Counted from the first letter of the stretch, positions 48,039-63,170 are shown. The stretch: 63,743 nucleotides of DNA from Bacteroidales bacterium (GCA_038247205.1 JBBRVC010000002.1:1-63743), one strand, 5' to 3'. The notes: generated by a model from the letters alone, not told the origin. Made by a program: numbers and translations.

Positions 48039-49520
48039 TTATTCAAATGACTTTCTGCTGTAATTTGGAGCTTCTCTGGTAATTGTAACATCATGAGGAT
48101 GACTTTCCAGAATTCCTGAATTGGTAATTCTTACAAATTTACCATCTCTTTTCAGTATCAAAATATTTTTAGCGCCCAGATAACCCATTCCGGCCCTTAA
48201 GCCACCCGTCATCTGGTAAATTACTTCTGAAAGTTTTCCTTTGTATGGGACTCTTGCTGCAATACCCTCAGGAACAAGTTTACTTATGTCATCCTCCATA
48301 TCCTGAAAATACCGGTCCTTAGAACCTTGCTGCATAGCCTCAATAGATCCCATGCCCCTGTAGGCTTTAAATTTGCGACCGTTATAAATAATTGTTTCGC
48401 CTGGCGATTCCTCCACCCCGGCAAATAATGATCCTGCCATTATTGAATCGGCACCTGCAGCAATTGCCTTTATTATATCACCTGAGTATCTGATTCCGCC
48501 ATCGGCAATTACAGGTATACCTGACCCCTCTATAGATTTTGAAACATCATAAATAGCAGATAGCTGAGGAACACCGACACCGGCAACTACTCTTGTGGTA
48601 CATATTGATCCCGGACCAATTCCTACTTTTACGGCATCAGCACCTTCATCAACGAGCCTTCTGGCAGCTTCAGCTGTTCCAATATTACCGGCTATCACGT
48701 CAATTGCAGGGTAATTTCTTTTTATCTCTTTTAAAATATTTATAACATTTATAGAGTGTGCATGAGCTGTATCTATTGAGATGGCATCAACGTTTGCATT
48801 AATCAGAGCTTCAACTCTCTTTAGAGTATCCGCCGCTATACCTACCGCACCTGCGACTCTTAATCTGCCTTTATCGTCCTTGCATGAGTTGGGACGATCT
48901 TTTGTTTTGGTAATATCCTTATAGGTAATTAGTCCGATGAGCTTGCCTGCGTCGTCGATCATCGGAAGCTTTTCAATTTTATGTTTCTGAAGAATCCTCG
49001 CTGCTGCCTCGAGGTTTGTCTGGTGGTTGGTAGTGATGAGATTTGTAGTCATCACTTCGGTAATTTTACGGCTGCGGTTATTTTCAAACCTGAGATCCCT
49101 GTTTGTTACAATTCCTTTCAGGATTCCGTTGGTGTCAATAACAGGTATTCCTCCGATCTTGTACTCACTCATCAGATTCATTGCCTCTCCGACGGTCGCA
49201 TCGAGCAGAATGGTTATCGGGTCGAAAATCATCACATTCTCTGCTCTTTTTACCCTCTTAACCTGGGAAGCCTGCTTTTCAATCGACATATTTTTATGGA
49301 TCACTCCTATGCCTCCCTCTCTGGCAATAGCAATTGCAAGTTCATCCTCAGTAACAGTATCCATGGCAGCTGAGACAACCGGTGTATTGATACGGATGTT
49401 TCTTGTGAACATTGAGCTGAGGTCCACTTCGCGGGGAAGTACCTCAGAATATGAAGGAACAAGAAGAACATCATCAAATGTTAGACCTTCATATAATATT
49501 TTATCATTTAAGAATGACAT
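48039..49520 (-). CDS. guaB: IMP dehydrogenase
   Basis: [10 protein letters not shown], a CBS pair, the catalytic loop [11 protein letters not shown], and GGIRYSGD. Confidence 0.95.
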
Positions 49521-49756
49521 TGGATGGAGTATTAGTTTGCTGGCGCAAATTACAAAAAAATCAGGACTCTGAAAATATCTCTAATTTTTACCGGAATACA
49601 CGGCTCAAAGGTCCACTGAGTGCACGATTTATCAATATTAATCTGTATTTGCTCAAAATTCTAAATGACCCTTTAGTGTCATTTAGCCATGCCGGAGTAC
49701 ATCATCATAAGAAATTGAAATACAGTTGTTACATTTGTGGAAGGAGTATACCGGAA

Positions 49757-51667
49757 ATGAATATTGAAGAATACAGGTTGATTTTAACCAGGTATTGGGG
49801 TTTTACATCTTTCAAACCTTTGCAGGAGGATATCATAAGATCTGTAGCGGAAGGAAAGGATTCACTTGGTCTGATGCCAACAGGAGGGGGGAAGTCGCTG
49901 ACATTCCAGGTTCCAGCCCTTGCAAAAGAAGGTATATGCCTGGTGATTACTCCCCTGATCGCACTAATGAAAGACCAGGTAAACAGACTCAATAGTTTGG
50001 AAATTAAGGCTATGGCTATTCATTCAGGCATGTCGGCCGAAGAAATAGATATAACTCTTGAAAACTGTATTTATGGTGAAGTTAAATTTTTATATGTATC
50101 CCCTGAGAGAATTGCGACGAGGCTTTTTCAGGCAAGGGCACCAAAACTAAACCTTTCTCTTGTGGCGATCGATGAAGCTCACTGTATTTCGCAATGGGGA
50201 TATGATTTTCGTCCGTCATATCTTAAGATCATCGCTTTGAGGGATATTATTTCTGAAAAAGTGCCTTTTCTTGCACTTACAGCTACGGCGACACCGTTTG
50301 TGATTGAAGATATAATTCAGAAACTGGGCTTCAGGGAAAAAAATATTTTCAGAACCAGTTTTGCCAGAAAAAATATCTCCTACCTCGTACGCAATGTTGA
50401 GGATAAAGGATCATATCTGATTAATACCCTGCAAAAAATTAAAGGCAGTGGCATCATTTATGTAAGAAGCAGGAAACGGTGCAAAGAAGTTGCAGAACTG
50501 CTTGTGGCAAATGGCATTAATTCAGATTATTATCATGCAGGTTTGCCCGAAGAGGTAAAGGACAAAAAGCAAACATCATGGAGCATTGGAGAAACCAGGG
50601 TGATTGTTGCAACAAACGCGTTCGGGATGGGTATTGACAAAGCCGAAGTGCGATTCGTAATACATTGGGATATACCGGAATCGATTGAGAGTTATTTTCA
50701 GGAAAGCGGACGGGCCGGAAGGGATAACAAACCTGCCTTCGCAGTTCTTTTGTATACCCCGACAGACAAAAAACGATTAAATGATTCTCTAAGGCAGAAA
50801 TTTCCGCCAATAGAAAAGATTAAAGATATATATGAAGCATTATGCAATTTTCTTCAGGTACCCCAGGGATCGGGAAAGGACAATGTATTTGACTTTAATA
50901 TGTCTGAATTCGTATCACGGTACCGGCTTCCTGTGATTGAAACTTACAACAGCCTCTTATTTCTTCAGAGAGAAGGCTACCTCGAATTCACTGAAGAAAT
51001 AAATAATCCCTCAAGGGTGCATTTTGTTGTTGGCCGGGACGATCTTTATAAATTTCAGGTAGCCAATGAGCCTTTTGATGGATTTATTAAGCTTCTTCTG
51101 AGATCTTATTCAGGAATGTTCTCAGAGTTTGTACCCGTTAACGAAGATTTACTTGCTAAGAAATCAGCGATTACCAGAGATGCTGTATATCAATATCTTG
51201 TGAAGCTTTCTGCCATGAATGTAATAAAATTTATTCCGGGTAAAAAAACCGCGCTTGTGATATTTACTGAAGAAAGGCTGGTTAGAAAAGCATTATTAAT
51301 CTCCCCTGATAATTATTTAAAAGTTAAGGAGAAGTATATTGTCAGGCTCAACAGAATGATGGATTATGCTGACAGTACAACAAGATGCAGATCTGTCATG
51401 CTTCTGGATTACTTTGGTGAAGAATCGGAGCGGTGCGGGGTATGTGATGTGTGTCGTGAAAGGAATGAACTTGACCTTAGTAAATATGAATTTGATATCA
51501 TTCTTGAAAAAATAAAAAAGATACTGGAGGAAGACGGCATTGATGCCGGACAACTCGTTAAAATGATGGGTCTCCCTGAGGAAAAAGTAATAAAAGTGGT
51601 GCGCGGGCTGCTGGACCGGGATAAAATTATTCAGGACAAAGATCATAAACTGAGCTGGAAGACCTGA
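49757..51667 (+). CDS. recQ: ATP-dependent DNA helicase RecQ
   Basis: FKPLQEDII, Walker A MPTGGGKS, DEAHCISQWGYDFRP, TATAT, and a zinc-binding CRxxxLLxYFGE...CGVCDVC. I prefer the Met at 49757. The 102-aa upstream extension in the track overlaps guaB. Confidence 0.9.
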   Translation: MNIEEYRLILTRYWGFTSFKPLQEDIIRSVAEGKDSLGLMPTGGGKSLTFQVPALAKEGICLVITPLIALMKDQVNRLNSLEIKAMAIHSGMSAEEIDITLENCIYGEVKFLYVSPERIATRLFQARAPKLNLSLVAIDEAHCISQWGYDFRPSYLKIIALRDIISEKVPFLALTATATPFVIEDIIQKLGFREKNIFRTSFARKNISYLVRNVEDKGSYLINTLQKIKGSGIIYVRSRKRCKEVAELLVANGINSDYYHAGLPEEVKDKKQTSWSIGETRVIVATNAFGMGIDKAEVRFVIHWDIPESIESYFQESGRAGRDNKPAFAVLLYTPTDKKRLNDSLRQKFPPIEKIKDIYEALCNFLQVPQGSGKDNVFDFNMSEFVSRYRLPVIETYNSLLFLQREGYLEFTEEINNPSRVHFVVGRDDLYKFQVANEPFDGFIKLLLRSYSGMFSEFVPVNEDLLAKKSAITRDAVYQYLVKLSAMNVIKFIPGKKTALVIFTEERLVRKALLISPDNYLKVKEKYIVRLNRMMDYADSTTRCRSVMLLDYFGEESERCGVCDVCRERNELDLSKYEFDIILEKIKKILEEDGIDAGQLVKMMGLPEEKVIKVVRGLLDRDKIIQDKDHKLSWKT

Positions 51668-52059: not shown

Positions 52060-52668
52060 ATGTCGACACCAGGGTTACAACATGTGAACAGCGAAAAGAG
52101 CCAAACCATATTTATAAAAAATATGGTTTGTTCATCATGTATCCGGGTGGTTAGGGAGGACCTGACCAAACTGGGTATAACTGTACTCGATGTTAAGCTG
52201 GGCGAAGCAACCATTGTTTACAACCGGGATAAGATAAGTAAACAAGATATAGATCAGGTACTGAATAGTTTTGGGATGGCTCTGATTATAAATAAGGATG
52301 AGCTTTTGGTGGAGCAAATCAAACAAACTGTTATTGAACTGGTTCACCACATGAACAATGTGAATTCAATTGCCCGGAAATCGGAATACCTGGTAGAGAA
52401 GATGGGAAAAAGCTACCAGACACTGTCCAAACTCTTCTCACGATTCGAGACCATAACCCTCGAACGTTACATCATTCTCCAGAAAATAGAACGGGTAAAA
52501 GATCTGGCCATGGAAGACAATATTTCATTGAGTGAAATTGCATGGATGATGGATTACAGCAGTCCAAATCATCTATCCAGCCAATTCAAAATCATCACCG
52601 GCGTTTCCCTGTCCGAATTCAAAAAAAATTCCACAATCCATCGTAAGCCAATCAACAATCTTTACTGA
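52060..52668 (+). CDS. AraC-family transcriptional regulator with N-terminal heavy-metal-associated (HMA)-like domain
   Basis: N-terminal IFIKNMVCSSCIRVVREDLTKLGI...GEATIVY resembles the ferredoxin-like HMA fold with an MxCxxC motif. The C-terminus carries an AraC HTH (SLSEIAWMMDYSSPNHLSSQFKIITGVSLSEFKK). Confidence 0.75.
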   Translation: MSTPGLQHVNSEKSQTIFIKNMVCSSCIRVVREDLTKLGITVLDVKLGEATIVYNRDKISKQDIDQVLNSFGMALIINKDELLVEQIKQTVIELVHHMNNVNSIARKSEYLVEKMGKSYQTLSKLFSRFETITLERYIILQKIERVKDLAMEDNISLSEIAWMMDYSSPNHLSSQFKIITGVSLSEFKKNSTIHRKPINNLY

Positions 52669-52675
52669 TTACCGT

Positions 52676-52698
52676 ATTTTGTAAATCATTTACAAAAT
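52676..52698. promoter_or_regulatory. 11-1-11 perfect palindrome (candidate operator or weak terminator) between regulator and operon
   Basis: ATTTTGTAAAT-C-ATTTACAAAAT, 8 nt after the AraC stop. A TAnnTTTG-like Bacteroidota -7 element (TATTTTTG, 52727-52734) lies about 22 nt upstream of the next ATG. Confidence 0.4.
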
Positions 52699-52755
52699 CA
52701 TATAGCACTTCCTTTTCGCTCTATATTATTTTTGTATTCATAAAAACTAATTGAG

Positions 52756-53019
52756 ATGAAAATAACTGACGAAGTAAGAATAAGCGACAATGGTTTCGTT
52801 TTTAATTCGAATACTGGCGATTCGTTCAATGTCAATGCAACCGGGCTTGAGCTAACAAAGCTGATTGCCCAGGGTCACGACTTTGAATCCATCAAAGCCA
52901 AATTTCTGGCGAAATACGATATCGACGACCTGTCTTTTGAAAAAGACTTCTATGAGTTCTGTGCATTGATTAAGCACCATCAACTCACCACAACCGAAGA
53001 TCCACTTGATTTCAAATAA
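52756..53019 (+). CDS. PqqD-family (RRE-like) small protein
   Basis: 87 aa. FVFNSNTGDSFNVNATGLELTKLIAQGHDFESIKAKFLAKYDIDDLSFEKDFYEFCALIKHHQL matches the PqqD consensus layout (N.tG..f.LN.tG..i...l..G.s...i...l...Y.v....l..D...F...L...gL). Confidence 0.7.
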   Translation: MKITDEVRISDNGFVFNSNTGDSFNVNATGLELTKLIAQGHDFESIKAKFLAKYDIDDLSFEKDFYEFCALIKHHQLTTTEDPLDFK

Positions 53020-53026
53020 GTCAACC

Positions 53027-54067
53027 ATGATAAAATTAACAGTAGCTGTTACCGGGCTCAACAACACGGATAATCCGGGGCCTGGCGTACCGGTAATCCG
53101 ATCGTTAAAAGAATCGACCGAATTTGAGCTAAGGATTATCGGGTTGGTTTACGAAACCCTTGAACCGGGGATTTATATGGAAGGATTATGCGATAAGATA
53201 TTCCAGATTCCCTATCCATCAGCAGGTTCCAACGAATTAATCGACCGCATTGAGGCCATCCACAACATGGATCCCATTGATGTAATCATTCCCAATTTCG
53301 ATTCTGAACTCTATTCGTTTATGAAAAGCGAGGAGCGTTTACGTAAATGTGGCATACACACTTTTCTGCCTACCATAAAGCAATTTCAGGAGCGGGATAA
53401 AGACCAGCTACCCGAATATGGTGAAAAATATGGCATCAAAGTGCCGGCAAGTTTAAACCTTGGCAGCCATAACCAAATATCAGAAATTAAAGAGAAATTT
53501 GAGTATCCTGTAATGGTGAAGGGTAAGTTTTACGATGCATACATAGCTTACAACACTGAACAGGTGAAGCAGGCCTTCAATAAGATTTCGTCAAAATGGG
53601 GATTGCCCGTTATCATTCAGAAATTTGTGAAAGGTACCGAGGTTAATGTGGTTGCACTGGGCGATGGTCAGGGGAATACTATTGCAGCCGTGCCCATGCG
53701 CAAGCAATACATTACCGATAAAGGTAAGGCCTGGGGCGGTATCACTTTATCAGACGAGAAAATGCTTGCTATTACGCGGGGTTTGATTCGTAAAACCAGA
53801 TGGAAAGGTGGCATGGAGCTAGAAATGATTAAAACAGTTGCCGGTGAGTATTACCTCATTGAGATTAATCCCCGCATCCCTGCTTGGGTTTATTTGGCTG
53901 TTGGTGCCGGACAAAATATTCCCGAAGCCCTTGTGAAACTGGCGTTGGGTCTTGAGGTAGCTCCTATGGAATCGTACAAATCGGGAAAAATGTTTGTGCG
54001 TTATTCATACGACATTATTGTTGACCTCGAGAAGTTTGAAAGTATTGCAATGAATGGAGAAATTTAA
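53027..54067 (+). CDS. ATP-grasp family ligase
   Basis: YPVMVKGK (ATP Lys), IIQKFVKGTEVNV (hinge), and GGMELEMIK...YYLIEINPRIP (Mg/ATP-binding E..E.N). I prefer the ATG at 53027, 7 nt after the upstream stop. Confidence 0.8.
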   Translation: MIKLTVAVTGLNNTDNPGPGVPVIRSLKESTEFELRIIGLVYETLEPGIYMEGLCDKIFQIPYPSAGSNELIDRIEAIHNMDPIDVIIPNFDSELYSFMKSEERLRKCGIHTFLPTIKQFQERDKDQLPEYGEKYGIKVPASLNLGSHNQISEIKEKFEYPVMVKGKFYDAYIAYNTEQVKQAFNKISSKWGLPVIIQKFVKGTEVNVVALGDGQGNTIAAVPMRKQYITDKGKAWGGITLSDEKMLAITRGLIRKTRWKGGMELEMIKTVAGEYYLIEINPRIPAWVYLAVGAGQNIPEALVKLALGLEVAPMESYKSGKMFVRYSYDIIVDLEKFESIAMNGEI

Positions 54068-54080
54068 TAACCAATGTATT

Positions 54081-55424
54081 ATGGAAAATATTAAATACGA
54101 AAAACCAACCATCAATAAAATTAATGCAGGTATGCCCAGCAAATTCGGTATGCCTGTAAAACAGAGAATCATTTCAGAAATCGATGGATTTAATGTTACA
54201 TCGTTGATCGAAGAGTATGGCTCGCCCTTGTTTGTGGTTTCTGAAAAAACCATTCGAGATGTATATACCGAGGCAAAACGTGCTTTCGAAACGAGGTATC
54301 CAAAAGTGCAATTTGCATGGTCGTATAAAACCAATTATCTCGATGCAATTTGCAGTATTTATCATAACGAAGGTTCTTGGGCTGAAGTTGTTTCGGGTTT
54401 CGAATTCGAGAAAGCACTTTCGTTAGGGGTTAACGGCACGCAAATCCTATTCAATGGACCCGATAAATCGGAGGCCGATCTGACCATGGCCATCGAACAT
54501 AATGCTTGCATACACATCGACCATTTTGATGAGCTTTATCAACTGATTGAGATAACGCGAAAAATGCAGAAAAAAGCAAGGGTAGCCATTCGCATCAATT
54601 TGGATGCAGGGATTTATCCCATCTGGGACCGATTTGGTTTCAACTATGAAAATGGCGATGCTTGGAACGCCATCAACAGGATTATGCTGACCGATAGTCT
54701 TGAATTAATTGGATTGCATACCCACATTGGAACATACATTATGGCTCAGTCTGCATATGCCATTGCCGCGTCAAAGTTGGCAAACCTTTATATGGCCATT
54801 CATCGCAAATTCGACTATTGGTTAAAGTACATCGATTTGGGCGGTGGTTTTGCTTCAAAAAATACATTAAAAGGGGCATATATGCCCGGTTCCGAAACCT
54901 GTCCGTCGTTCGATGAATATGCCGAAGCCATCTCTAATGCGCTCATTTCATCCGAAATTCCACACGAAAATTTACCGGTGCTTTTTCTCGAAACCGGAAG
55001 GGCATTAATCGATGATGCCGGGTATTTGCTCACCACAGTGATTGCCAACAAACGGTTGAATGGAGGCAGGCGCTCCATGGTGATCGATGCCGGAATTAAT
55101 TTGCTGTTTACCTCGTTCTGGTATAACCTTGGGATTTATCCGTCGAAAGAGATTTCAGGACATTCCGAAGAGTCGACTATTTATGGACCGTTGTGCATGA
55201 ATATCGATGTTATCCGCGATGCCATTGTTTTTCCACAGGTGAAACCCGGTGATCAACTGGTTGTTGAGCGTGTAGGTGCTTACAATATGACGCAATGGAT
55301 GCAGTTTATTAAATATCGACCCAATGTGGTTTTGATTGATATGGATGGTAAAGCGCACATTATCCGAAAAAAGGAGAGCCTCGAAACTTTCAAAAAGATG
55401 GAGCTAAATCCAAAATTAGAGTAA
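54081..55424 (+). CDS. fold-III (Orn/DAP/Arg-type) PLP-dependent decarboxylase
   Basis: Hallmark motifs in order: FAWSYKTNY (PLP Lys), LHTHIGT, YIDLGGGF, LFLETGRAL (EPGR-like), and GPLCMNIDV (C...D). The start is 54081, or 54054 if it overlaps the upstream gene. Confidence 0.85.
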   Translation: MENIKYEKPTINKINAGMPSKFGMPVKQRIISEIDGFNVTSLIEEYGSPLFVVSEKTIRDVYTEAKRAFETRYPKVQFAWSYKTNYLDAICSIYHNEGSWAEVVSGFEFEKALSLGVNGTQILFNGPDKSEADLTMAIEHNACIHIDHFDELYQLIEITRKMQKKARVAIRINLDAGIYPIWDRFGFNYENGDAWNAINRIMLTDSLELIGLHTHIGTYIMAQSAYAIAASKLANLYMAIHRKFDYWLKYIDLGGGFASKNTLKGAYMPGSETCPSFDEYAEAISNALISSEIPHENLPVLFLETGRALIDDAGYLLTTVIANKRLNGGRRSMVIDAGINLLFTSFWYNLGIYPSKEISGHSEESTIYGPLCMNIDVIRDAIVFPQVKPGDQLVVERVGAYNMTQWMQFIKYRPNVVLIDMDGKAHIIRKKESLETFKKMELNPKLE

Positions 55425-55434
55425 ATAAGCAGGT

Positions 55435-57657
55435 ATGGGTAATATCATAAAAAAGTTGGGCGATGAAGCTCTCTCTTCTGTGTTGAACAGCTACTCACAG
55501 GTCTTTTTTTCCACATCGAAAGTGTTGGCCTTATGCCTGCTATTTATCAGTTTTTTCGATTATGGAGCTGGCATTGGCGGATTTATTGCAGTGGTAATTG
55601 CCAACTTATTGGCTCATTTTCTGGGTTACAATGCCTATTTTAGAAAGGCGGGGCTTTACGGTTTCAACAGTTTGTTGGTGGGATTAGGGGTAGGCTTGAT
55701 ATTTCAATCTTCCTTTGAACTTTACATACTTATTGCCATTGCAACAACCACTTGTTTTTTCCTTACCATTGTTTTTCAGGGAGTGCTCGGAAAATATGGG
55801 CTTCCTTTTTTAAGCATACCCTTTTTAATTACCATATGGATCATCACTTTATCGGTTGACCAACTAACTTCCCTGAATATTAGCGAACGGGGAATTTACA
55901 CCTACAATGAACTTTACGGACTCGGCGGTCATGTAATGGTTAGCTTGTATAACTGGTTAGATAAGTTTGTGACCTCTTCATTTATACGGATTTATTTTTA
56001 TTCACTTGGAGCCATATTTTTTCAAAAGGGATTGCTTGCCGGGATCATTATTTCGTTTGGAATTTTGATCTATTCGCGAATTACCTTCGTGCTTTCAATA
56101 TTGGGCTATTCGGTGTCGTATCTCTTTTATGTATTGGTTGGGATCGAATTTAACTCGTTGAGCTATACTTTTATAGGATTCAATTATATTCTGACTGCGA
56201 TTGCGTTGGGGGGCTATTACTTAATTCCGGGACGAATCAGTTACGCATGGATTATCATACTTTTACCATCGGTTGTATTGGTCACAATCAGTGCACAACA
56301 GATTTTTTATCAGTTCCATATTTCGCCCTATTCGCTTCCGTTTAACATGGTGGTGTTGATGTTCATTTATGCGTTAAAACTTCGTGAGAAAAGACCCAAA
56401 GGTTTGCTCGAAACACCTGTGCAGTTGGGCAATCCCGAGAGAAACCTCTACCTGCAATCGGGCAATATGAAACGATTCCCGACAAAATATGCGGTTTCGG
56501 CTTCGCTGCCTTTTTTTGGCGAATGGGAAGTTAGCCAGGGACATAAAGGTGAGATTACGCATAAAGGGGCCTGGCAAAATGCCTGGGATTTTATTGTTAC
56601 CGATAAAGATGGCAGGCAGTATAAAGGAAGTGGCGATTATCCTGAAGATTATTATTGCTTTGGGAAAGTAATTGTAGCTCCTTATGATGGCACTGTGATT
56701 GAAATTGTGAATTCCATACCCGACAACAGCATTGGCGATGTGGATACCAAAAATAATTGGGGTAATACAATCATCATAAAACATGGTTTCGATATTTATT
56801 CGAAATTGTGCCATCTGAAATACCACTCTATCGAAGTTAAGGTAGGCGATAATGTTAAACAGGGACAATTGCTCGGAAAATGTGGCAACTCAGGTCGATC
56901 ACCTTATCCACATCTGCACTTTCAGTTTCAGTCAACACCATACATTGGCTCTCCAACCATCGATTATCCATTTGGCCATTATCTGCTAAGGGGTGAAAAA
57001 TACACTTTCAAAACGTTTTCATTTCCACAAAAAGGCGATGTAGTGGCCAATCCGGTTAAAAATGTGATGTTGGCAAATGTGATGCATTTTACGCCAGGAC
57101 AAAAAATTTGTGGCGAATTTCAGGTTACATCGATTAAAACCGGATTGAAGATACACGAAGAGTACTTCAAATGGAGAGTTGATACTGATGTGTTCAATTC
57201 AACCTATTTCGAATGTGAAGAGGATAAGTCGATTGCATACTTGTACAATAATGGCAACTTGCACTATTTTACTAATTTTACAGGGAAAAGAGAGTCGCCT
57301 TTGTATTGGTTTTTTCTAGCCTTTATTAAAGTTCCTCTTGGATTTTTACCCAATAGCAACATTCATGATCAAGTACCTCTAAATTTGTTGTTTGGCGGTC
57401 TGTTGAAGTTTATTCAGGATTTTGTTGCCCCGTTGTTCCTTTTTCTGAAGGTCAATTACCGGCTTGAAATCAAAGAGGCAGGCGACATCCTTTCGTCGGG
57501 CGATTTGAAGATGGTTGCCGAAATCTCAAAGAAGATTGCGGGCAGGGAGACAGATAAATATCTTTTCGATATTGGGATTAATGAAAATGGGGTTTTTGAA
57601 ATTGAAATTCTAACAGGAGAGCTTAAAATCAATTTAAAATGTCGAAACGAATCGTAA
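55435..57657 (+). CDS. fusion protein: urea-transporter (UT)-like polytopic channel, M23 metallopeptidase domain, and an unassigned ~240-aa C-terminal domain
   Basis: aa ~10-320 form ~9-10 TM helices with UT-family motifs (NSYSQVFFS, GLYGFNSLLVGLG). aa ~355-500 form M23 (THKGAWQNAWDF, then GNSGRSPYPHLHFQ with HxH). I recognise nothing in aa 501-740. Confidence 0.75.
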   Translation: MGNIIKKLGDEALSSVLNSYSQVFFSTSKVLALCLLFISFFDYGAGIGGFIAVVIANLLAHFLGYNAYFRKAGLYGFNSLLVGLGVGLIFQSSFELYILIAIATTTCFFLTIVFQGVLGKYGLPFLSIPFLITIWIITLSVDQLTSLNISERGIYTYNELYGLGGHVMVSLYNWLDKFVTSSFIRIYFYSLGAIFFQKGLLAGIIISFGILIYSRITFVLSILGYSVSYLFYVLVGIEFNSLSYTFIGFNYILTAIALGGYYLIPGRISYAWIIILLPSVVLVTISAQQIFYQFHISPYSLPFNMVVLMFIYALKLREKRPKGLLETPVQLGNPERNLYLQSGNMKRFPTKYAVSASLPFFGEWEVSQGHKGEITHKGAWQNAWDFIVTDKDGRQYKGSGDYPEDYYCFGKVIVAPYDGTVIEIVNSIPDNSIGDVDTKNNWGNTIIIKHGFDIYSKLCHLKYHSIEVKVGDNVKQGQLLGKCGNSGRSPYPHLHFQFQSTPYIGSPTIDYPFGHYLLRGEKYTFKTFSFPQKGDVVANPVKNVMLANVMHFTPGQKICGEFQVTSIKTGLKIHEEYFKWRVDTDVFNSTYFECEEDKSIAYLYNNGNLHYFTNFTGKRESPLYWFFLAFIKVPLGFLPNSNIHDQVPLNLLFGGLLKFIQDFVAPLFLFLKVNYRLEIKEAGDILSSGDLKMVAEISKKIAGRETDKYLFDIGINENGVFEIEILTGELKINLKCRNES

Positions 57658-58973
57658 TGATATGTGCTTTGGTTGGCTTATTTACAACCATTGTGGCGCA
57701 AGGAAAATTAAATATTGAGGAAGTTGACAAATATTCGTACCAGCTATACCAGGAAGAAAAATGGGATGAATTGATCAAATACTCACAGGAATCAATGGAG
57801 CAGGGGATCGATTTTTTTTATCTCAGGGCAAGAACCGGAATTGCATGGTACAACCTGGGGAAATATAGAAATGCTTCTACCTGGTTTATTCGGGCTGGTG
57901 AAAACGATCTTTCGGCTGACTGGCTGCAGGAATATTTGTACTATAGCCTTATTTTTAGCGGGCGAACATTGGATGCCAACAAATATGCATCTTCTTTTTC
58001 AGATGCCACGACAAAGAAAATTGGCTTTAAACGGGCAGCAGTCACTAATTTGACTTATGAAACCGGATACAGTTTTAATACCGATTTTGATGATTTGAAA
58101 ATACGTGATTTTAAATCTGAAGCGAACCTCGGCGACGATTATGGCGAGGCGTATTTGCTTAAAAATTACATATTCCATTCGTTCGATCTTTTTCATCGAA
58201 TTGCACCAAATTTCACATTGCAGCACAACCTTACCTACATCGGGGTAAACCGTGAAACGCTGGTTGATTGGGTGACACAAACCACATCGCCTGTTCAGGT
58301 GAAGGAGTTGCAGTATTATGTTAGCCCTGTTTGTGTGATTGGCAAACGACTGAATGTTTCAACCTCATTGAATTATATATTAGGAAATGCCGATGTTTAT
58401 GCCGGGTCATTAAATTCAAATTTGGATAAGGTCTATACCGTTTCAAAGTCAAAATATAGCGATTATTTAGTCTCATCTTCGGTTTGGTCTCATTTGGGCA
58501 ACCTGTCATATGGCGTTGAGATCAACGGTGGTGACATAAGCAATTCCAGATTCTATCAGGTTTCGGGTTGGGGTACCTGGTATCCGCTTTCGAACTTAAA
58601 TCTCTATTTTACGCCCAGAATTTACTTTAAATCTGACAACGATATCAATAGTTTTGCTTTTAAAGCCATGGGCATTTCGGGTGGGGCGCAATTGGGTCAA
58701 TTCCATCTTTATGGGCAATATTTGTTTGGCGATATGGAAAACTTTGTTGAGTCGGCCGGATCTGTTATTGCCAATTACCCTGGCCGATCGGATTGGAAAC
58801 TGATGGGGAGTCTCTATTTTCCATTTTCTAAAAGATATCAATTTGTGTTGCGTTACATCAATCAGAATATTATTGAAGAATATCAGGTTTATACAGCAGG
58901 GGAGAAAAGTAATTCACTAGAATATAGCTACTTGAAAAATACATTAACAGGAGGAATATCATGGACATTTTAA
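57639..58973 (+). CDS. outer-membrane beta-barrel protein with N-terminal helical (TPR-like) region
   Basis: Signal peptide MSKRIVMICALVGLFTTIVAQ, a helical ~100 aa, then long runs of alternating amphipathic strands. The terminus is the OMP-type GGISWTF. The start overlaps the upstream stop by 19 nt. Confidence 0.5.
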   Translation: MSKRIVMICALVGLFTTIVAQGKLNIEEVDKYSYQLYQEEKWDELIKYSQESMEQGIDFFYLRARTGIAWYNLGKYRNASTWFIRAGENDLSADWLQEYLYYSLIFSGRTLDANKYASSFSDATTKKIGFKRAAVTNLTYETGYSFNTDFDDLKIRDFKSEANLGDDYGEAYLLKNYIFHSFDLFHRIAPNFTLQHNLTYIGVNRETLVDWVTQTTSPVQVKELQYYVSPVCVIGKRLNVSTSLNYILGNADVYAGSLNSNLDKVYTVSKSKYSDYLVSSSVWSHLGNLSYGVEINGGDISNSRFYQVSGWGTWYPLSNLNLYFTPRIYFKSDNDINSFAFKAMGISGGAQLGQFHLYGQYLFGDMENFVESAGSVIANYPGRSDWKLMGSLYFPFSKRYQFVLRYINQNIIEEYQVYTAGEKSNSLEYSYLKNTLTGGISWTF

Positions 58974-59584
58974 AAAGGATTTTATTTGTAGTTGGATTTT
59001 GTTTGGTTGTGAACTCAGGATTCACACAATCAAACCAAGCTTCATTGCAAGCTGCATTTTTGAAAAGTTATACATTTGAAAAAAGTGGTGATTTCAGTGC
59101 ATCGATGAATGCTTTGAAAAACGTATACGACGAATCATCGTATGAATTGAATCTTAGGTTGGGATGGCTGAATTACAATGCTGGATTATTCGACGAATCG
59201 GTCATTTTTTACAAAAAGACACAGAAGCTTAAACCTTATTCGGAGGAAGCTCGGTTTGGATTGATACTACCACTTTCGGCCCTGGGTAAATGGAACGAAG
59301 TAATTAATATTTACGACGAAATCCTTCAATTAAGCCCAAATAACACGGTTGCTATTTACCGGCTGGGACTTGTATATTATGGACGCAAGGAGTATGACAA
59401 AGCCAATTCACTATTTAATAAGGTGGTCGATTTATATCCGTTTGGTTATGATGGGTTATTGATGTTGGGATGGACATCTTATTTTCTGGGTAATTCAAAC
59501 CAGGCCAGGATACTTTTTAATAAAGTACTCCTTTATAACCCTGGCGATAAATCGGCAACGGAGGGATTGAGCTTACTCAAATAA
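58961..59584 (+). CDS. secreted tetratricopeptide-repeat protein
   Basis: Signal peptide (FVVGFCLVVNSGFTQ). At least four TPR-like units (e.g. A..YRLGLVYYGRKEYDKANSLFNKVVDLYP). The start overlaps the upstream stop by 13 nt. Confidence 0.75.
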   Translation: MDILKRILFVVGFCLVVNSGFTQSNQASLQAAFLKSYTFEKSGDFSASMNALKNVYDESSYELNLRLGWLNYNAGLFDESVIFYKKTQKLKPYSEEARFGLILPLSALGKWNEVINIYDEILQLSPNNTVAIYRLGLVYYGRKEYDKANSLFNKVVDLYPFGYDGLLMLGWTSYFLGNSNQARILFNKVLLYNPGDKSATEGLSLLK

Positions 59585-59633
59585 ATAATCAAAACAGAAT
59601 GATAAAGAGAAATGTTTTTACTAGTTATTCATC

Positions 59634-59798
59634 TTACTTCCGCCTAATACCTGAATTAATTTCAATTTTTGAATTACCTGAAATAATTGAAAAAGTGCTG
59701 TCAGTTCGTACGGCCTGAGATTGTCCTGCAATATTATTGCATATACCTGATAATCCGGAAATAATGAGGATGAAGGTTGTTAGTATTTGAAATCTCAT
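59634..59798 (-). CDS. small hypothetical secreted peptide (54 aa from the internal Met)
   Basis: MRFQILTTFILIISGLSGICNN looks like a signal peptide, followed by ~30 polar residues. No homology recognised. Coding status uncertain. Confidence 0.3.
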   Translation of the reverse strand: MRFQILTTFILIISGLSGICNNIAGQSQAVRTDSTFSIISGNSKIEINSGIRRK

Positions 59799-59857
59799 CT
59801 TAAAATTTAATTTAATACCAAAGTACAACCTGTTTTTGTGTCATTTTCAAATTAAAA

Positions 59858-59901
59858 TCAATGAGTGAGGGAGTGTTTATTGAACTTCCCTCTCTCATTG
59901 A
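59858..59901 (-). terminator. long imperfect hairpin downstream of the SusD remnant
   Basis: TCAATGAGTGAGGGAG-loop-CTTCCCTCTCTCATTGA (about 14 Watson-Crick pairs plus 1 wobble pair and one mismatch), followed on the minus strand by a T-rich run. Confidence 0.55.
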
Positions 59902-59915
59902 TGAGTTTAAAGATA

Positions 59916-60329
59916 TTAGTTATAACCAGGGTTTTGCAAAAGCCCGGGGATTAAATCTACCTCAGTTTGTGGTTTAGGTAATAACTTATTATATTCGGCA
60001 ACATAAGGATAAAGGGCTATATTAGCAGACACAACTTGTTCTTTACGAACAAGGTCAAACCATCTTTTACATTCAAATGCCAATTCCCATTCGCGTTCTT
60101 TTATAACTGCAGCATCAAAATCAGCTTTTGACATTCCTGATGGAAGATCAGGATAAACAGCGGGATTGAAGCCGCCAGCTCTTCTTCTTACTTTATTAAG
60201 AGCCTCAAGTGCTTCTGCTGAAGGAGCTCCTTCTGCCATGTTTGCTGCTTCAGCATAGATTAATAATACCTCTGCATATCTGTTTATTGGGAAGAATCCA
60301 TCTCCACCGCCCTTTAATCGATTTTTCAT
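59916..60329 (-). pseudogene. RagB/SusD-family nutrient-binding lipoprotein, C-terminal ~135-aa remnant only
   Basis: YAEVLLIYAEAANM..., ALNKVRRRAG, REREWELAFECKRWFDLVR and a terminal LLQNPGYN form the conserved SusD C-terminus. Full-length SusD proteins are roughly 450-600 aa with a lipoprotein signal. Here the ORF begins 3 nt after a terminator hairpin, and no SusC gene is present. Confidence 0.75.
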
Positions 60330-60389: not shown

Positions 60390-63170
60390 CTACTGATAGC
60401 AAACCAGTGCACCATCATTATAAACCATCAGCCCATTGTCTGTGCCGAGGTAGATGAGACCATTCTTATCTATCACTATACTCAAAATATTATCGCTGAT
60501 AAGTCCGTCTTTCATTGTATAAGAAATCCACTCCGTACCATCAAAAATTGATAGCCCTCCCTGTGTCCCAAACCAGACTTTTCCTTCAGGGTCAGTAGCG
60601 ATTGCCTGAACAAAGTTATTTATCAAACCGTTCTCAGTGTTATATATTGTCCAGTTTTCCAGAGTGTTAAACCCTTTATGTTTACCAACACCCATGTCTG
60701 TTCCGAACCATTGTATTGAGTCATGGTCAATGCAGATGCTATAAACATTATCGGAAGGTAGTTCGATAGGACCCCATTGTGCATAGGAAGAAGCACCTGA
60801 AATTCCATCTACTTTATCTTTGAAAACTCTGGTTATACCGGCTCCCTTTGTTGCAACATAAAGAGAATCTCCATTAAGGCTTGTAGCCATGGCTGTTACA
60901 GGGAAATCCTTGAACATGTCAAGCGGATAAGTTCTCATATATGCCGGAGTAAGCCATTTTTTATCAGAAAGTGCTGATATTCCGTTATTTGTACCGAACC
61001 AGCGTAAATTATTTCTTCCAATTACAACTGAAAGCACACTGTCGCTTAATATGGCAGATCCGGCTTTATTGAATGTGGCAGTTGCTGAGCCTGGTTCAAT
61101 CGGAAGTGAAGCGGTAACAGCTCCCTGTCCGGTGGCAATCCATAATCCCGGTCCTTCTTTTGATAGTTCATATACGAGGTCATTAAGCTGGCCACCGGGT
61201 ATGTTTTCAGAAACCAGCGCAAATCTGCTGTTGACAATTCCGGCATCGGTTAAGAACCATTTTCCATTATTGTCGTCAACTACTGCGGCATAAAACTTCT
61301 TTCCCTTCAATGCATCGATCAAAGGTCGTTTAGTTACTGATTTGAAAGTACCACTTTTATTCTCAGTGGTTACCGCTGCAGATGCTGGAGGTCTGACGTC
61401 AGCCGGAGGTAATACTACTGTTGCGGGAACAACATCCTTACCTGATTTTACTTTTTTTGCTTTAGCTGGCTTTATTTTGGAAGGTATCGTAATAAGTTCG
61501 ATGCCGGTATTTTTGCCAAGATTTCGTGAATACTGTTTATTATCAGGATTGTTCCAATGCTCATGAATTCCAAGGCTGGTTAAAGGTTTTCCGCTATTAT
61601 CAGGGTCATATGTTATGCCAATCGGCCAGTTGGCAGGATCGGCAGCCTGATGCAGATAATCATCCACTCCGTTTACATTTGGCATAGTTTCAATCCTTGC
61701 ATTACGGGGGTCATGAGTGTATGTGCCATTCCATTCCGTTCTGAGGAAATCATAACATACTGATTCAAGGGCAACCTGATCCTGCGAAATGAAGATTGAA
61801 TTGCTCCAGTCATTATTAAATGGTGACATGAAATACTTAACGGGTTGTCCTCCTTCAGAAGCGCCGCCACCGAATAAGCCGTCAACTACAAATAGTAAAG
61901 TATTCTGACCCAGATACTTGCTCCCCATAAGGTCTACAAAAACACGATACTTGCGATATCCGCCGTTTGTAGGTTTTGCTTCTGCAACAGGTGAAACATG
62001 TGAATAATGAAGATGATATGCACCTGCTCTTGAATGAGATCCGAAATGATTCTTTGCAGTGAGAGTTATCCCTGACCTGAGGTGAGGTTTAAAATTTGCT
62101 ACATTGATCATGTAATCAGCATTCTCGATAACATCGTAGAATCTGTCAGTCTGTGATTTATCAGAATAAAAAATAAGTTCATTGACTGTAGGTTTGATCA
62201 GGGTTCTTCCGTGTTGCGTTGTTACATTATCGATGATACCTACATTTGGGAATTCTGCTCTCCATACATCGGAATTATGACCAAAAACATGGTTCTGAGG
62301 GTCACCTATAGAAATATCTTCCTGTGCAACTCCTGCCTCATTTATTAGTTGCCTTAATATCTCAAGCACTACTGAAGGGCCAGTCTGGCAAGTACCAAAG
62401 GTTGGATTCGCAGATGGACGAAGGTTAAACCCATTAGCCATATCATCCTTGCTGAGGGCACCTCTTGCGCTTGTCTGATTTATCTTGATAAATATTTTTT
62501 CTCCTTTTGTATATCCTTTATCGACATTTTTTTTCTTCAGATTAAAGCTGTGAAAGATAGCGTCCCATGATTCAGCAGCATTTTTTTTCCCTGATAGTTT
62601 CAGAACAGATTCGCTCACCATTTTACTAACAACCTTATGATCTGTATTTCCGGGATTATAAAAATAGCCCTCCATGTTTTCATTAGTTGCATTTTTGTCC
62701 CATGCCCATATTACCCTGCCGGGATTTATTCCAACCGGTGTCCCAATGGGTTGATTAGGTCCGTCGTCAGGCCCGGTGGAGGCTTTAGCAAGTGCTGAAG
62801 CATTCTGACTGCCCTGAATGATTGAAAATACCATACCTCCTGCAGCAGCAAAAATGAAAGCTCCGGCGGCAATGTATTTAGCACGTAACAAATTTAGTTT
62901 GGCCTTCCGGAGAGCGACCATAATTCCTCCAAGAGTGAGAATATATAAAACAAACCCCGACATAAATGGAGCAGCAACTCTCATGCATGGATAACTTGCT
63001 CTGGAAGGTTTTGGGATGACCCTGACAAGGAACCAGATGGTTGATATTATTCCCAGGAGATAAAATGTCAGTCTTGGAGGAAGATGTTTTTCACTCATCC
63101 AGTTTCGTATAGCTCCTAATTTCCCTTTGAGTTTAAGTACATCAAATTTATCTATTTTCAACATTTTCAA
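60390..63170 (-). CDS. membrane-anchored DUF362-domain protein fused to a two-component-regulator-type beta-propeller
   Basis: N-terminal TM helices with KPSRASYPCMRVAAP. DUF362-like core (IFIKINQ..., NFKPHLRSGITLTAKNHFGS). A Pro/Ala linker, then six or more repeats of the WFGT/ATxxG type (LWIATGQGAV, LRWFGTNNGI, LYVATKGAGI, IQWFGTDMGV, KVWFGTQGGL, LIYLGTDNGL). Confidence 0.6.
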   Translation of the reverse strand: MKMLKIDKFDVLKLKGKLGAIRNWMSEKHLPPRLTFYLLGIISTIWFLVRVIPKPSRASYPCMRVAAPFMSGFVLYILTLGGIMVALRKAKLNLLRAKYIAAGAFIFAAAGGMVFSIIQGSQNASALAKASTGPDDGPNQPIGTPVGINPGRVIWAWDKNATNENMEGYFYNPGNTDHKVVSKMVSESVLKLSGKKNAAESWDAIFHSFNLKKKNVDKGYTKGEKIFIKINQTSARGALSKDDMANGFNLRPSANPTFGTCQTGPSVVLEILRQLINEAGVAQEDISIGDPQNHVFGHNSDVWRAEFPNVGIIDNVTTQHGRTLIKPTVNELIFYSDKSQTDRFYDVIENADYMINVANFKPHLRSGITLTAKNHFGSHSRAGAYHLHYSHVSPVAEAKPTNGGYRKYRVFVDLMGSKYLGQNTLLFVVDGLFGGGASEGGQPVKYFMSPFNNDWSNSIFISQDQVALESVCYDFLRTEWNGTYTHDPRNARIETMPNVNGVDDYLHQAADPANWPIGITYDPDNSGKPLTSLGIHEHWNNPDNKQYSRNLGKNTGIELITIPSKIKPAKAKKVKSGKDVVPATVVLPPADVRPPASAAVTTENKSGTFKSVTKRPLIDALKGKKFYAAVVDDNNGKWFLTDAGIVNSRFALVSENIPGGQLNDLVYELSKEGPGLWIATGQGAVTASLPIEPGSATATFNKAGSAILSDSVLSVVIGRNNLRWFGTNNGISALSDKKWLTPAYMRTYPLDMFKDFPVTAMATSLNGDSLYVATKGAGITRVFKDKVDGISGASSYAQWGPIELPSDNVYSICIDHDSIQWFGTDMGVGKHKGFNTLENWTIYNTENGLINNFVQAIATDPEGKVWFGTQGGLSIFDGTEWISYTMKDGLISDNILSIVIDKNGLIYLGTDNGLMVYNDGALVCYQ

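Follow-up and report, generated by a model that had tools for sequence, protein, structure and literature searches.

A conserved six-gene cassette in which a urea-transporter-family channel fused to an M23 peptidase is joined by a PqqD-like protein, an ATP-grasp ligase and a FigC-type decarboxylase

Do the seven genes that follow one another at positions 52060-59584 of a 63,743-nucleotide stretch of DNA from a Bacteroidales bacterium (GCA_038247205.1 JBBRVC010000002.1:1-63743; the whole stretch is called "the window" below) belong together, and if so, what might they make? A preliminary description, drawn from the sequence alone, had read them as a seven-gene accessory operon encoding an AraC-type regulator, a PqqD-like small protein, an ATP-grasp ligase, a decarboxylase dependent on pyridoxal phosphate (PLP), a urea-transporter (UT)-family channel fused to an M23 peptidase (UT-M23), an outer-membrane β-barrel and a secreted TPR protein, and had proposed that they make, release and export a modified peptide or an amino-acid-derived small molecule.

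To see whether this arrangement recurs, UT-M23 homologues were aligned and the alignment was used to scan one genome per species. At least 564 stretches (species-level genomes) encode a UT-M23 relative; the best 80 loci were examined, with neighbouring genes scored by tblastn using the window proteins as queries and all counts limited to loci with enough flanking sequence to be testable. The genes for PqqD, ATP-grasp and decarboxylase lie directly upstream of UT-M23 in 59 of 60 testable loci, and those for the barrel and the TPR protein lie downstream of it in 71 of 71. The sole exception for the upstream trio is a locus in which an integrase-like gene replaces the upstream part (L020:8156-9460). 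In essentially every related locus with enough flank, the six genes from PqqD to TPR are collinear, and this collinearity persists down to a UT-M23 identity of 46%, with median protein identities among the relatives ranging from 52% for the barrel to 80% for the decarboxylase. Because the six genes are collinear across relatives, their arrangement goes far beyond chance, and the possibility that they merely came to lie side by side is clearly contradicted. The cassette is thus a real, conserved unit of six genes (PqqD, ATP-grasp, decarboxylase, UT-M23, barrel and TPR). By contrast, the AraC-type regulator is a same-strand neighbour of the cassette in only 11 of the 58 relatives that could be tested, so that of the proposed seven-gene operon six members stand, while the regulator is a lineage-specific accessory outside the conserved core. 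The genes that flank the cassette in the window (IMP dehydrogenase, RecQ, a SusD fragment and a 926-amino-acid (aa) protein) were not found beside it in any relative. Where the relatives' records carry specific names, these mostly belong to the Marinilabiliales (Prolixibacteraceae, Maribellus, Draconibacterium, Mariniphaga, Mangrovibacterium); for many others the label goes no further than Bacteroidota or Bacteroidales, and a few organism labels were taken to be mislabelled bins.

In the window, open reading frame (ORF) calling returned seven plus-strand ORFs at 52060-59584, with the same coordinates as first proposed, and Pfam profile searches reproduced the domain calls for the AraC, PqqD, ATP-grasp, PLP decarboxylase, UT-M23 and TPR proteins. 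The features are as follows.

52060..52668, plus strand: AraC-type regulator with an N-terminal HMA-like (MxCxxC) domain (HTH_18 2e-12; HMA 0.0037)
52756..53019, plus strand: PqqD-family small protein of 87 aa, resembling a RiPP recognition element (RRE; RiPP, ribosomally synthesised and post-translationally modified peptide) (Pfam PqqD 6.4e-05)
53027..54067, plus strand: ATP-grasp amide ligase of the carbamoyl-phosphate synthetase (CPS)-like / ATPgrasp_Ter clade (ATPgrasp_Ter, ATP-grasp_3, CPSase_L_D2)
54054..55424, plus strand: fold III (alanine-racemase-fold) PLP decarboxylase of "clade 2", which holds FigC and diaminopimelate decarboxylase (DAPDC) (Orn_Arg_deC_N, Orn_DAP_Arg_deC)
55435..56394, plus strand: UT-family channel domain of the UT-M23 fusion, residues 1-320 (Pfam UT 1.3e-54)
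56395..56950, plus strand: basic linker and M23 metallopeptidase domain of UT-M23 (Peptidase_M23 1.7e-16)
56951..57657, plus strand: C-terminal β-rich domain of UT-M23, with no Pfam family (AlphaFold2 model)
57639..58973, plus strand: outer-membrane protein with a TPR-like helical domain and a 14-strand β-barrel (AlphaFold2; no Pfam or NCBIfam match)
58961..59584, plus strand: small TPR protein of 207 aa (several TPR Pfam families)

The UT-M23 fusion gene as a whole occupies 55435-57657 (+). From PqqD onward the genes are tightly packed, as had been noted, provided that the likely start codons are used. The longest ATP-grasp ORF opens at a TTG at 53006, with the ATG at 53027 as the likely start since a database copy of the same protein has 346 aa; this leaves a 7-nt spacer behind the PqqD stop at 53019. 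Similarly, the decarboxylase probably starts at its second Met (54081), because the N-termini of its orthologues read MEKLNYEKP, which places it 13 nt behind the ATP-grasp stop at 54067. A 10-nt spacer separates the decarboxylase stop (55424) from the UT-M23 start (55435), and the remaining junctions are overlaps (57639/57657 between the UT-M23 and barrel genes, 58961/58973 between the barrel and TPR genes), while 87 nt lie between the regulator and PqqD. The guanine-plus-cytosine (GC) content of the cassette does not deviate from that of the rest of the window. A promoter and terminator scan gave the same counts as shuffled sequence, with a tool that covers no Bacteroidota promoters; a check for mobile-element borders showed no noteworthy direct or inverted repeats flanking the cassette; and an Rfam search for riboswitches or leaders returned none in the window at E<=1 and none at the gathering threshold in six related loci.

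The cassette tolerates insertions. In L023 (8376-9722), two ORFs of 140 and 146 aa lie between the decarboxylase and UT-M23 genes; they have a long identical stretch in common and possibly encode a transposase. An Mfd/TRCF gene occupies the same position in L030 (6383-9727), and a DDE transposase gene lies between the regulator and PqqD in L010 (1734-3221).

Does the arrangement extend beyond these close relatives? Contigs encoding distant ATP-grasp relatives, with GC contents from 0.28 to 0.70, contain further versions of the cassette. L089 and L090 (46% ATP-grasp identity, GC 0.59) encode PqqD, ATP-grasp, decarboxylase, UT-M23, a TPR protein and a 307-aa protein with a signal-peptide-like N-terminus and a terminal Phe. 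In a second type, PqqD, a doubled ATP-grasp and decarboxylase are joined by a UT domain that carries SIR2 in place of M23 (L086, GC 0.70; L094, 0.67; L095, 0.28; L096, 0.39); L087 and L088 are partial copies of it, and L093 encodes a TPR protein, a PqqD::ATP-grasp fusion, a 290-aa protein, decarboxylase and a UT-SIR2-GNAT protein. The decarboxylases of the distant loci are 36-53% identical to that of the window (E 1e-74 to 1e-165) and thus closer to it than FigC is, and of the full-length distant cassettes examined, all but L091 encode a UT domain. The four-part core of PqqD, ATP-grasp, clade-2 decarboxylase and UT-hydrolase therefore recurs in unrelated genomic backgrounds, with M23 exchanged for SIR2 on the UT scaffold. 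Judging from GC and gene content, the cassette probably spans several phyla. A TPR protein of about 200 aa recurs with the core, usually beside a small outer-membrane barrel. In L094, a 197-aa TPR protein beside the cassette is a full-length homologue of the window's TPR protein (28% identity, E 1.4e-20), and next to it lies a 292-aa protein with a signal-peptide-like N-terminus and a terminal Trp; in L086, a TPR protein directly precedes PqqD, with a signal-peptide-like N-terminus containing Leu-Gly-Cys, possibly a lipobox. An ammonium transporter gene and a P-II protein gene lie beside the TPR and barrel-like genes of L094 (13884-15752), which may be a coincidence or a link to nitrogen metabolism.

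What chemistry could this core perform? In a PDB search, the closest solved relative of the decarboxylase is FigC/FslC (7kh2; 3.1e-62), followed by DAPDC (1.5e-37) and BtrK (1.6e-26), and the protein scores 244 bits against the NCBIfam FslC model (cut-off 500). FigC is the N-citrylornithine decarboxylase of rhizoferrin synthesis and has been grouped with SbnH, AcsE, MccE, BtrK and DAPDC in "clade 2", whose members that are neither DAPDC nor D-ornithine decarboxylase (D-ODC) act on conjugated (ligase-made) amino acids in specialised metabolism (PMC7857480). In a residue-level alignment, Met comes after the catalytic Cys, which matches C354-M355 of FigC, in place of the Asp that binds the free distal amine in DAPDC and ornithine decarboxylase. 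An assignment as LysA accordingly fails, both on this residue and on the score against TIGR01048 (227 bits, cut-off 297.9). The specificity residues described for FigC include the citrate contacts H357, R387 and N389 as well as T327, T330 and Y331 (PMC7857480); T327 and Y331 are kept in the window's enzyme, while H357, R387, N389 and T330 are replaced by Ile, Gln, Met and Trp. This pattern leads us to infer that the enzyme acts on an amino acid with its distal group already in amide linkage to an acyl part other than citrate, probably a less polar one.

An amide-forming enzyme is encoded directly upstream. The best solved relative of the ATP-grasp protein is 2pn1, which is uncharacterised, followed by CPS; its best models are ATPgrasp_Ter and the CPS-like PRK12767, its matches to RimK, Ddl and PylC are marginal (RimK 16.7 bits), and no graspetide maturase model matched. 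Among 1.84 billion cluster representatives, 230 relatives were found at E<=1e-30, many of them tandem duplications of about 710 aa. Domain scans of odd-sized relatives revealed two fusions, PqqD::ATP-grasp (P0457, in L093) and ATP-grasp::decarboxylase (P0407, on 7 contigs). These fusions, together with the invariant gene order, show that PqqD, ligase and decarboxylase work together. The ligase family evidently serves several different systems. Relatives at 42-50% identity occur without decarboxylase or UT (L081:8537-11047, L084:4087-9056, L085:5442-9047): in a Crocinitomicaceae genome the order is a protein sorted by the type IX secretion system (T9SS), an 85-aa PqqD-like protein and ATP-grasp, in L084 the ATP-grasp gene comes directly after that of a 1263-aa T9SS-sorted protein, and the ATP-grasp gene of L085 is part of a glycan-type locus with MBOAT, glycosyltransferase and epimerase genes.

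The PqqD match lies just above the Pfam gathering score, and the protein is conserved across 64 loci. Against the NCBIfam lasso chaperone models it reaches 21.6 bits (cut-off 70), and its match to the WgkC chaperone is likewise below the cut-off. Its C-termini vary by clade (DPLDFK, LLENE, LRLLL, IIKKAA, AKANG), and a role as a LysW-like carrier was rejected on this lack of a conserved tail; the LysW/LysX system as a whole does not fit either, the ATP-grasp not being RimK/LysX-like and PqqD lacking a conserved acidic C-terminus. Is there a peptide for PqqD to recognise? The 350 nt upstream of PqqD in 64 loci contain nothing conserved, and among ATG-started ORFs 18-90 aa long, taken from the intergenic DNA up to 3 kb from the cassette at 81 loci, only PqqD itself and alternative-frame artefacts emerged, a search that leaves room for an unlinked or very short precursor. 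Of the product first proposed, the peptide half thus fares poorly, no precursor having been found, and the amine or amide half is better supported. Earlier exclusions of lasso peptide, microviridin and polyamine assignments were right, domain scans lacking the defining parts in the first two cases: Pfam and NCBIfam scans of the seven proteins showed no Asn-synthetase-like cyclase or transglutaminase-like peptidase, and no precursor was found, as a lasso cluster would have them, and for a graspetide the ATP-grasp is not of the MdnB/MdnC (RimK-like) clade and again no precursor was found.

The Pfam UT match of the UT-M23 protein spans 291 of 292 profile positions and, compared with the Desulfovibrio UT (dvUT) structure 3k3f, it keeps the SQVFF, GLYGFN and LPxx[ST]xPF pore motifs, so that on sequence the domain is of the UT family, with the UT fold and its paired pore signature motifs; against the Yut equivalog model it scores 118 bits (cut-off 274.6). 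Both LPxxTxPF pore threonines are serines, and the position aligned with Glu187 of dvUT is Ala, invariant in a 12-sequence alignment (A1); the residues concerned are 127, 193 and 300 of the UT domain. Pore selectivity may therefore differ from that of true urea channels. Besides the M23 domain, the UT channel is a universal part of the core. The M23 domain has a canonical HxH motif and catalytic His region (GNxxxIxHG...HL...PHLHF), and H376, D385, H460, H493 and H495 are invariant among homologues; its first zinc motif, H376-x8-D385, carries an insertion relative to HxxxD. Its catalytic equipment looks intact. The last ~240 residues of the protein match no Pfam family; in the AlphaFold2 model, 10-residue blocks of the last ~190 mostly score 55-92 and drop to 43-54 in places, and the C-terminal domain is weakly LolA-like (E ~1e-4, target-normalised template-modelling (TM) score ~0.4, root-mean-square deviation ~9 Å), which we take as a lead only.

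On which side of the inner membrane would the peptidase domain lie? UT proteins have, as far as is known, both termini on the cytoplasmic side, and SIR2 requires NAD+ and GNAT acetyl-CoA, cofactors that place the C-terminal extension of the SIR2 and GNAT versions in the cytoplasm. A KLREKRPK stretch follows the last hydrophobic helix of the UT domain, and the UT-SIR2 proteins are equally basic there. Given the SIR2 and GNAT domains at the same position and this K/R-rich segment, the M23 domain is most probably cytoplasmic as well. The idea of M23-dependent release coupled to inner-membrane passage through the UT domain thus keeps its fusion and its channel, while a periplasmic location of the peptidase gives way to a more likely cytoplasmic one. 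A cytoplasmic M23 domain would be unusual for a family known, as the names of its PDB matches indicate, from peptidoglycan hydrolases, and no M23 peptidase is known to us to have been described from the cytoplasm.

At the outer membrane, the barrel protein has only 317 homologues, named "hypothetical", "TPR repeat protein" or not at all. Although Pfam offers no support for the barrel call, an AlphaFold2 model built on an alignment of 20 homologues bears it out, with a signal-peptide-like N-terminus (read by eye), seven TPR-like helices and a 14-strand barrel at a mean predicted local distance difference test (pLDDT) of 86.5. Its best PDB folds are FadL and TodX (TM 0.45-0.56), with PgaA and BcsC far lower. 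The small TPR protein likewise has an N-terminus that reads, by eye, like a signal peptide and is probably periplasmic. The proposed split into cytoplasmic chemistry and an envelope module holds, and it recurs in distant lineages. Between cassette types, the barrel-like partners have no detectable sequence homology, so their equivalence is positional only.

Several neighbouring genes bear on how the cassette may be read. The HMA match of the regulator is below the Pfam cut-off, but the MxCxxC motif is present and its CxxC is kept in orthologues, which suggests metal sensing. In L002 (2609-7087), a TonB-dependent receptor (CarbopepD_reg and Plug) and a DUF4249 gene lie between regulator and PqqD. 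Clustering of flanking ORFs showed that in 36 of 68 testable relatives the TPR gene is immediately followed by an eighth gene, of ~265-277 aa; its product carries a T9SS C-terminal sorting domain (Por_Secre_tail; for example L001:14239-15072). The T9SS proteins of different cassettes have no detectable homology outside the sorting domain. The window holds no trace of such a gene. Instead, its TPR gene is followed by an ORF of 64 aa on the minus strand (59634-59828), the start of which resembles a signal peptide, and by a SusD gene remnant (59916-60329, minus strand) that retains only the C-terminal 137 residues. With the T9SS gene absent and the short ORF and SusD fragment in its place, the right border (59585-60329) has been rearranged or deleted, which is consistent with the earlier remark that this border is disturbed. 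The remark that the operon is the only non-housekeeping block in the window does not survive: directly after it come the truncated SusD gene and the gene for the 926-aa protein (60390-63170, minus strand), which has an N-terminal membrane segment, DUF362 and Reg_prop repeats. On the other side, the longest RecQ-like ORF (49451-51667) overlaps the start of the divergent inosine monophosphate (IMP) dehydrogenase gene (48039-49520) by ~70 nt, and its true start is probably an internal Met further downstream.

How might these parts act together? As a tentative outline that we find quite possible but would not yet rely on, the cassette would ligate, decarboxylate, release by a channel-tethered amidase and export a small product. 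The ATP-grasp enzyme, positioned by PqqD on a carboxylate or amine acceptor (a peptide, a protein segment or something else), would form an amide bond in such a way that the appended amino acid keeps its alpha-amino-acid head free after ligation. The decarboxylase would next, on the model of FigA/FigC, SbnH, AcsE and BtrJ/BtrK, strip the alpha-carboxylate from the conjugated amino acid and leave a terminal amine. At the cytoplasmic mouth of the UT channel, the M23 domain, or the sirtuin in other lineages, would cut a non-standard amide and so release or deprotect a small amine or amide, which could exit through the channel, with the TPR and TPR-barrel proteins aiding its passage across periplasm and outer membrane. 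M23 enzymes and sirtuins both cut side-chain-amine or otherwise non-standard amides (D-Ala-meso-diaminopimelate and Gly-Gly bridges in the first case, N-epsilon-acyl-lysine in the second), and it is this common amide preference that leads us to propose release or deprotection as the task of the tethered domain.

A number of points weigh against this outline. The order of the steps, the amino acid and the product are all inferred, and neither in the cassette nor near it, at 81 loci, was an acceptor or precursor gene found. The UT pore is very narrow and would pass only a very small or thread-like product, and the UT domain might, alternatively, serve as an anchor in the membrane or as a sensor. 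If the amide made by the ligase is cut again, the net reaction is the decarboxylation of an amino acid at the cost of ATP, which would have to be explained, for example by protection or channelling. The AlphaFold2 model of the M23 half is poor (mean pLDDT 53.5, from a shallow alignment). Finally, L091 has PqqD and a fused ligase-decarboxylase but no UT, and some ATP-grasp relatives lie in quite different contexts, beside T9SS cargo or within glycan loci.

Could the same genes be read differently? It is conceivable, though on balance unlikely, that they serve the RiPP-like post-translational modification of a secreted protein or an unlinked peptide. Here PqqD would recognise a segment of the TPR protein or of a T9SS protein, or a precursor encoded elsewhere, ATP-grasp and decarboxylase would install an aminoacyl-derived amine, and the M23 or SIR2 domain would edit or remove the modification. 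Such a reading would make good sense of the PqqD family, which comprises peptide-binding RREs in pyrroloquinoline quinone (PQQ), lasso and related pathways, of the sirtuins, which are protein-lysine deacylases, and of the secreted proteins nearby: a large secreted repeat protein directly precedes PqqD in several loci (TPR in L086, L087 and L093; T9SS cargo in L081-L083), T9SS cargo precedes ATP-grasp in L084, and 36 of 68 relatives have a gene for a T9SS-sorted protein behind the cassette. However, no conserved small ORF was found at 81 loci, the associated T9SS proteins are non-homologous outside the sorting domain, and the window has no T9SS gene and yet keeps all six core ORFs at full length. 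Moreover, secreted proteins would need to be modified before Sec export, and the invariant UT channel would go unexplained. The channel also speaks against a metallophore pathway, which we consider improbable and in which ATP-grasp would replace the NIS synthetase (NIS, siderophore synthesis independent of non-ribosomal peptide synthetases) of rhizoferrin, staphyloferrin B or achromobactin synthesis, a FigC-like enzyme would decarboxylate the conjugate, and the product would bind metal: a siderophore-sized molecule is too large for a UT pore. FigC, SbnH and AcsE are indeed the characterised neighbours of the decarboxylase clade, the local regulator bears the HMA-like CxxC domain, the receptor and DUF4249 pair of L002 stands between regulator and PqqD, and a TonB_C protein is encoded upstream in L091. 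Yet the FigC citrate contacts H357, R387 and N389 are Ile, Gln and Met here, no IucA/IucC synthetase occurs in the cassette or its distant versions, the regulator (11 of 58) and the receptor (a single locus) are lineage-specific, and the conserved core does without a receptor.

A product that does suit a narrow pore would be a thread-like polyamide, made, in the manner of the BtrJ/BtrK steps, by iterated Glu or Asp side-chain ligation and alpha-decarboxylation; a side-chain-free oligo- or poly-(4-aminobutyrate or beta-alanine) would thread through the amide-binding UT channel to a TPR/beta-barrel module of the sort that serves exopolysaccharide secretion, and M23 or SIR2 would trim the chain or free it from a primer. 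We regard this as a very long shot. TPR domains with a beta-barrel are a hallmark of polymer export (PgaA, BcsC), and both proteins are among the fold matches, albeit far below FadL; distant cassettes have doubled ATP-grasp modules, M23 enzymes favour side-chain-free Gly-Gly or isopeptide bonds, to judge from the names of the PDB matches, and BtrJ/BtrK carry out one cycle of ligation, decarboxylation and ligation (PMC7857480). Against these points, the idea follows from chemical logic alone, a polymer of this kind is not known, the FadL-like barrel has 14 strands instead of 16-18, and no measurement suggests that UT pores pass polymers. The direction of transport might also be the reverse, in an uptake, catabolic or stress system in which an amide or urea-like solute enters through barrel and UT channel, is cleaved and then passes to ligase and decarboxylase, or in which decarboxylase and channel serve the homeostasis of pH or nitrogen. 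Solutes can pass UT channels in both directions, catabolic operons are often under AraC control, the barrel resembles FadL, whose family consists of uptake channels, and L094 has genes for an ammonium transporter and a P-II protein next to its cassette. There is little probability in this direction either, since neither AraC nor Amt/P-II genes are conserved neighbours, domain scans of the conserved core turned up neither catabolic dehydrogenases nor aminotransferases nor urease, and every characterised ATP-grasp ligase or clade-2 decarboxylase works in biosynthesis (PMC7857480).

If the preferred sequence of ligation, decarboxylation, release and export is true, what would follow? UT channels, which to our knowledge have been described only as pores for urea and small amides, would also act as exporters coupled to biosynthesis, and the functional equivalence of M23 and sirtuin would point to the cleavage of isopeptide or N-acyl-amine bonds. 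A PqqD/RRE protein working with ATP-grasp and a FigC-type decarboxylase would stand outside classical RiPP logic, and the "ligate, then decarboxylate" strategy would extend beyond siderophores and butirosin. Occurrence in at least 564 species-level genomes of diverse GC suggests that the product likely matters, in envelope physiology or in sediment and soil interactions, and the cultivable carriers Maribellus, Draconibacterium and Mariniphaga make the cassette directly testable. As first suspected, no characterised pathway matched in Pfam, NCBIfam, PADLOC, Rfam or the searchable literature: Pfam and NCBIfam hold no dedicated family model for the cassette, a full-text search combining its parts returned no paper describing the arrangement, and papers on graspetides and on RREs do not contain it. 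A known anti-phage defence system was rejected, the seven proteins and one UT-SIR2 homologue giving no PADLOC match, as was synthase-dependent exopolysaccharide secretion, on the lack of a glycosyltransferase and on 14 barrel strands versus 16-18. That the cassette represents an unrecognised class of envelope-spanning pathway, in which an RRE-guided ligase, a decarboxylase, a UT-tethered cytoplasmic amidase (M23 in Bacteroidota, a sirtuin elsewhere) and TPR/barrel export are joined, is a possibility that we hold with considerable doubt. Its most extreme form, with a side-chain-free polyamide as the product, is a very long shot.

How, then, does the cassette compare with systems already described? 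The pairs of ligase and clade-2 decarboxylase (FigA/FigC for rhizoferrin, SbnH for staphyloferrin B, AcsE for achromobactin, MccE for microcin C) resemble it in that the decarboxylase is genetically coupled or fused to an amide-forming ligase and a ligate-then-decarboxylate logic is common to both, FigC being the most similar, with Cys-Met kept. They differ in using an IucA/IucC NIS synthetase in place of ATP-grasp and PqqD, in the citrate residues that are lost here, and in exporting by a major facilitator superfamily pump, where this cassette has a UT-hydrolase fusion, a TPR protein and a barrel. Butirosin synthesis (BtrI/BtrJ/BtrK) likewise employs a small protein of ~87 aa, an ATP-dependent ligase and a DAPDC-like decarboxylase (BtrK, a homologue; PMC7857480), with a later amide-cleaving step that releases or deprotects the product. 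Here, however, the small protein is PqqD-like and not a phosphopantetheinyl carrier (Pfam and NCBIfam scans showed no PP-binding domain), there is no acyltransferase or monooxygenase, and the amide hydrolase is tethered to a membrane channel. Pathways built on RRE scaffolds (PQQ, mycofactocin, and 3-thiaglutamate with its peptide aminoacyl-tRNA ligase, PEARL) also place a PqqD-type adaptor beside a modifying enzyme, and a peptidase could release the product; the present cassette differs in that no scaffold gene was found, in having no radical-SAM or PEARL enzyme, and in a UT and envelope module without counterpart there. In ATP-binding cassette (ABC) exporters with a C39 peptidase, a cytoplasmic peptidase domain is similarly fused to an inner-membrane exporter, suggesting export-coupled cleavage, whereas here the channel is passive and of the UT family, the hydrolase is M23 or SIR2, and there is no known double-glycine precursor. 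PgaA, BcsC and AlgK-AlgE, finally, offer the precedent of TPR domains fused to an outer-membrane barrel and an extra periplasmic TPR protein, but the barrel here is a 14-strand, FadL/TodX-like one and comes without a glycosyltransferase synthase. Set beside these systems, the cassette follows the "ligate, then decarboxylate" logic of specialised metabolites, combines it with an export and release module that we have not found described, and may form a category of its own.

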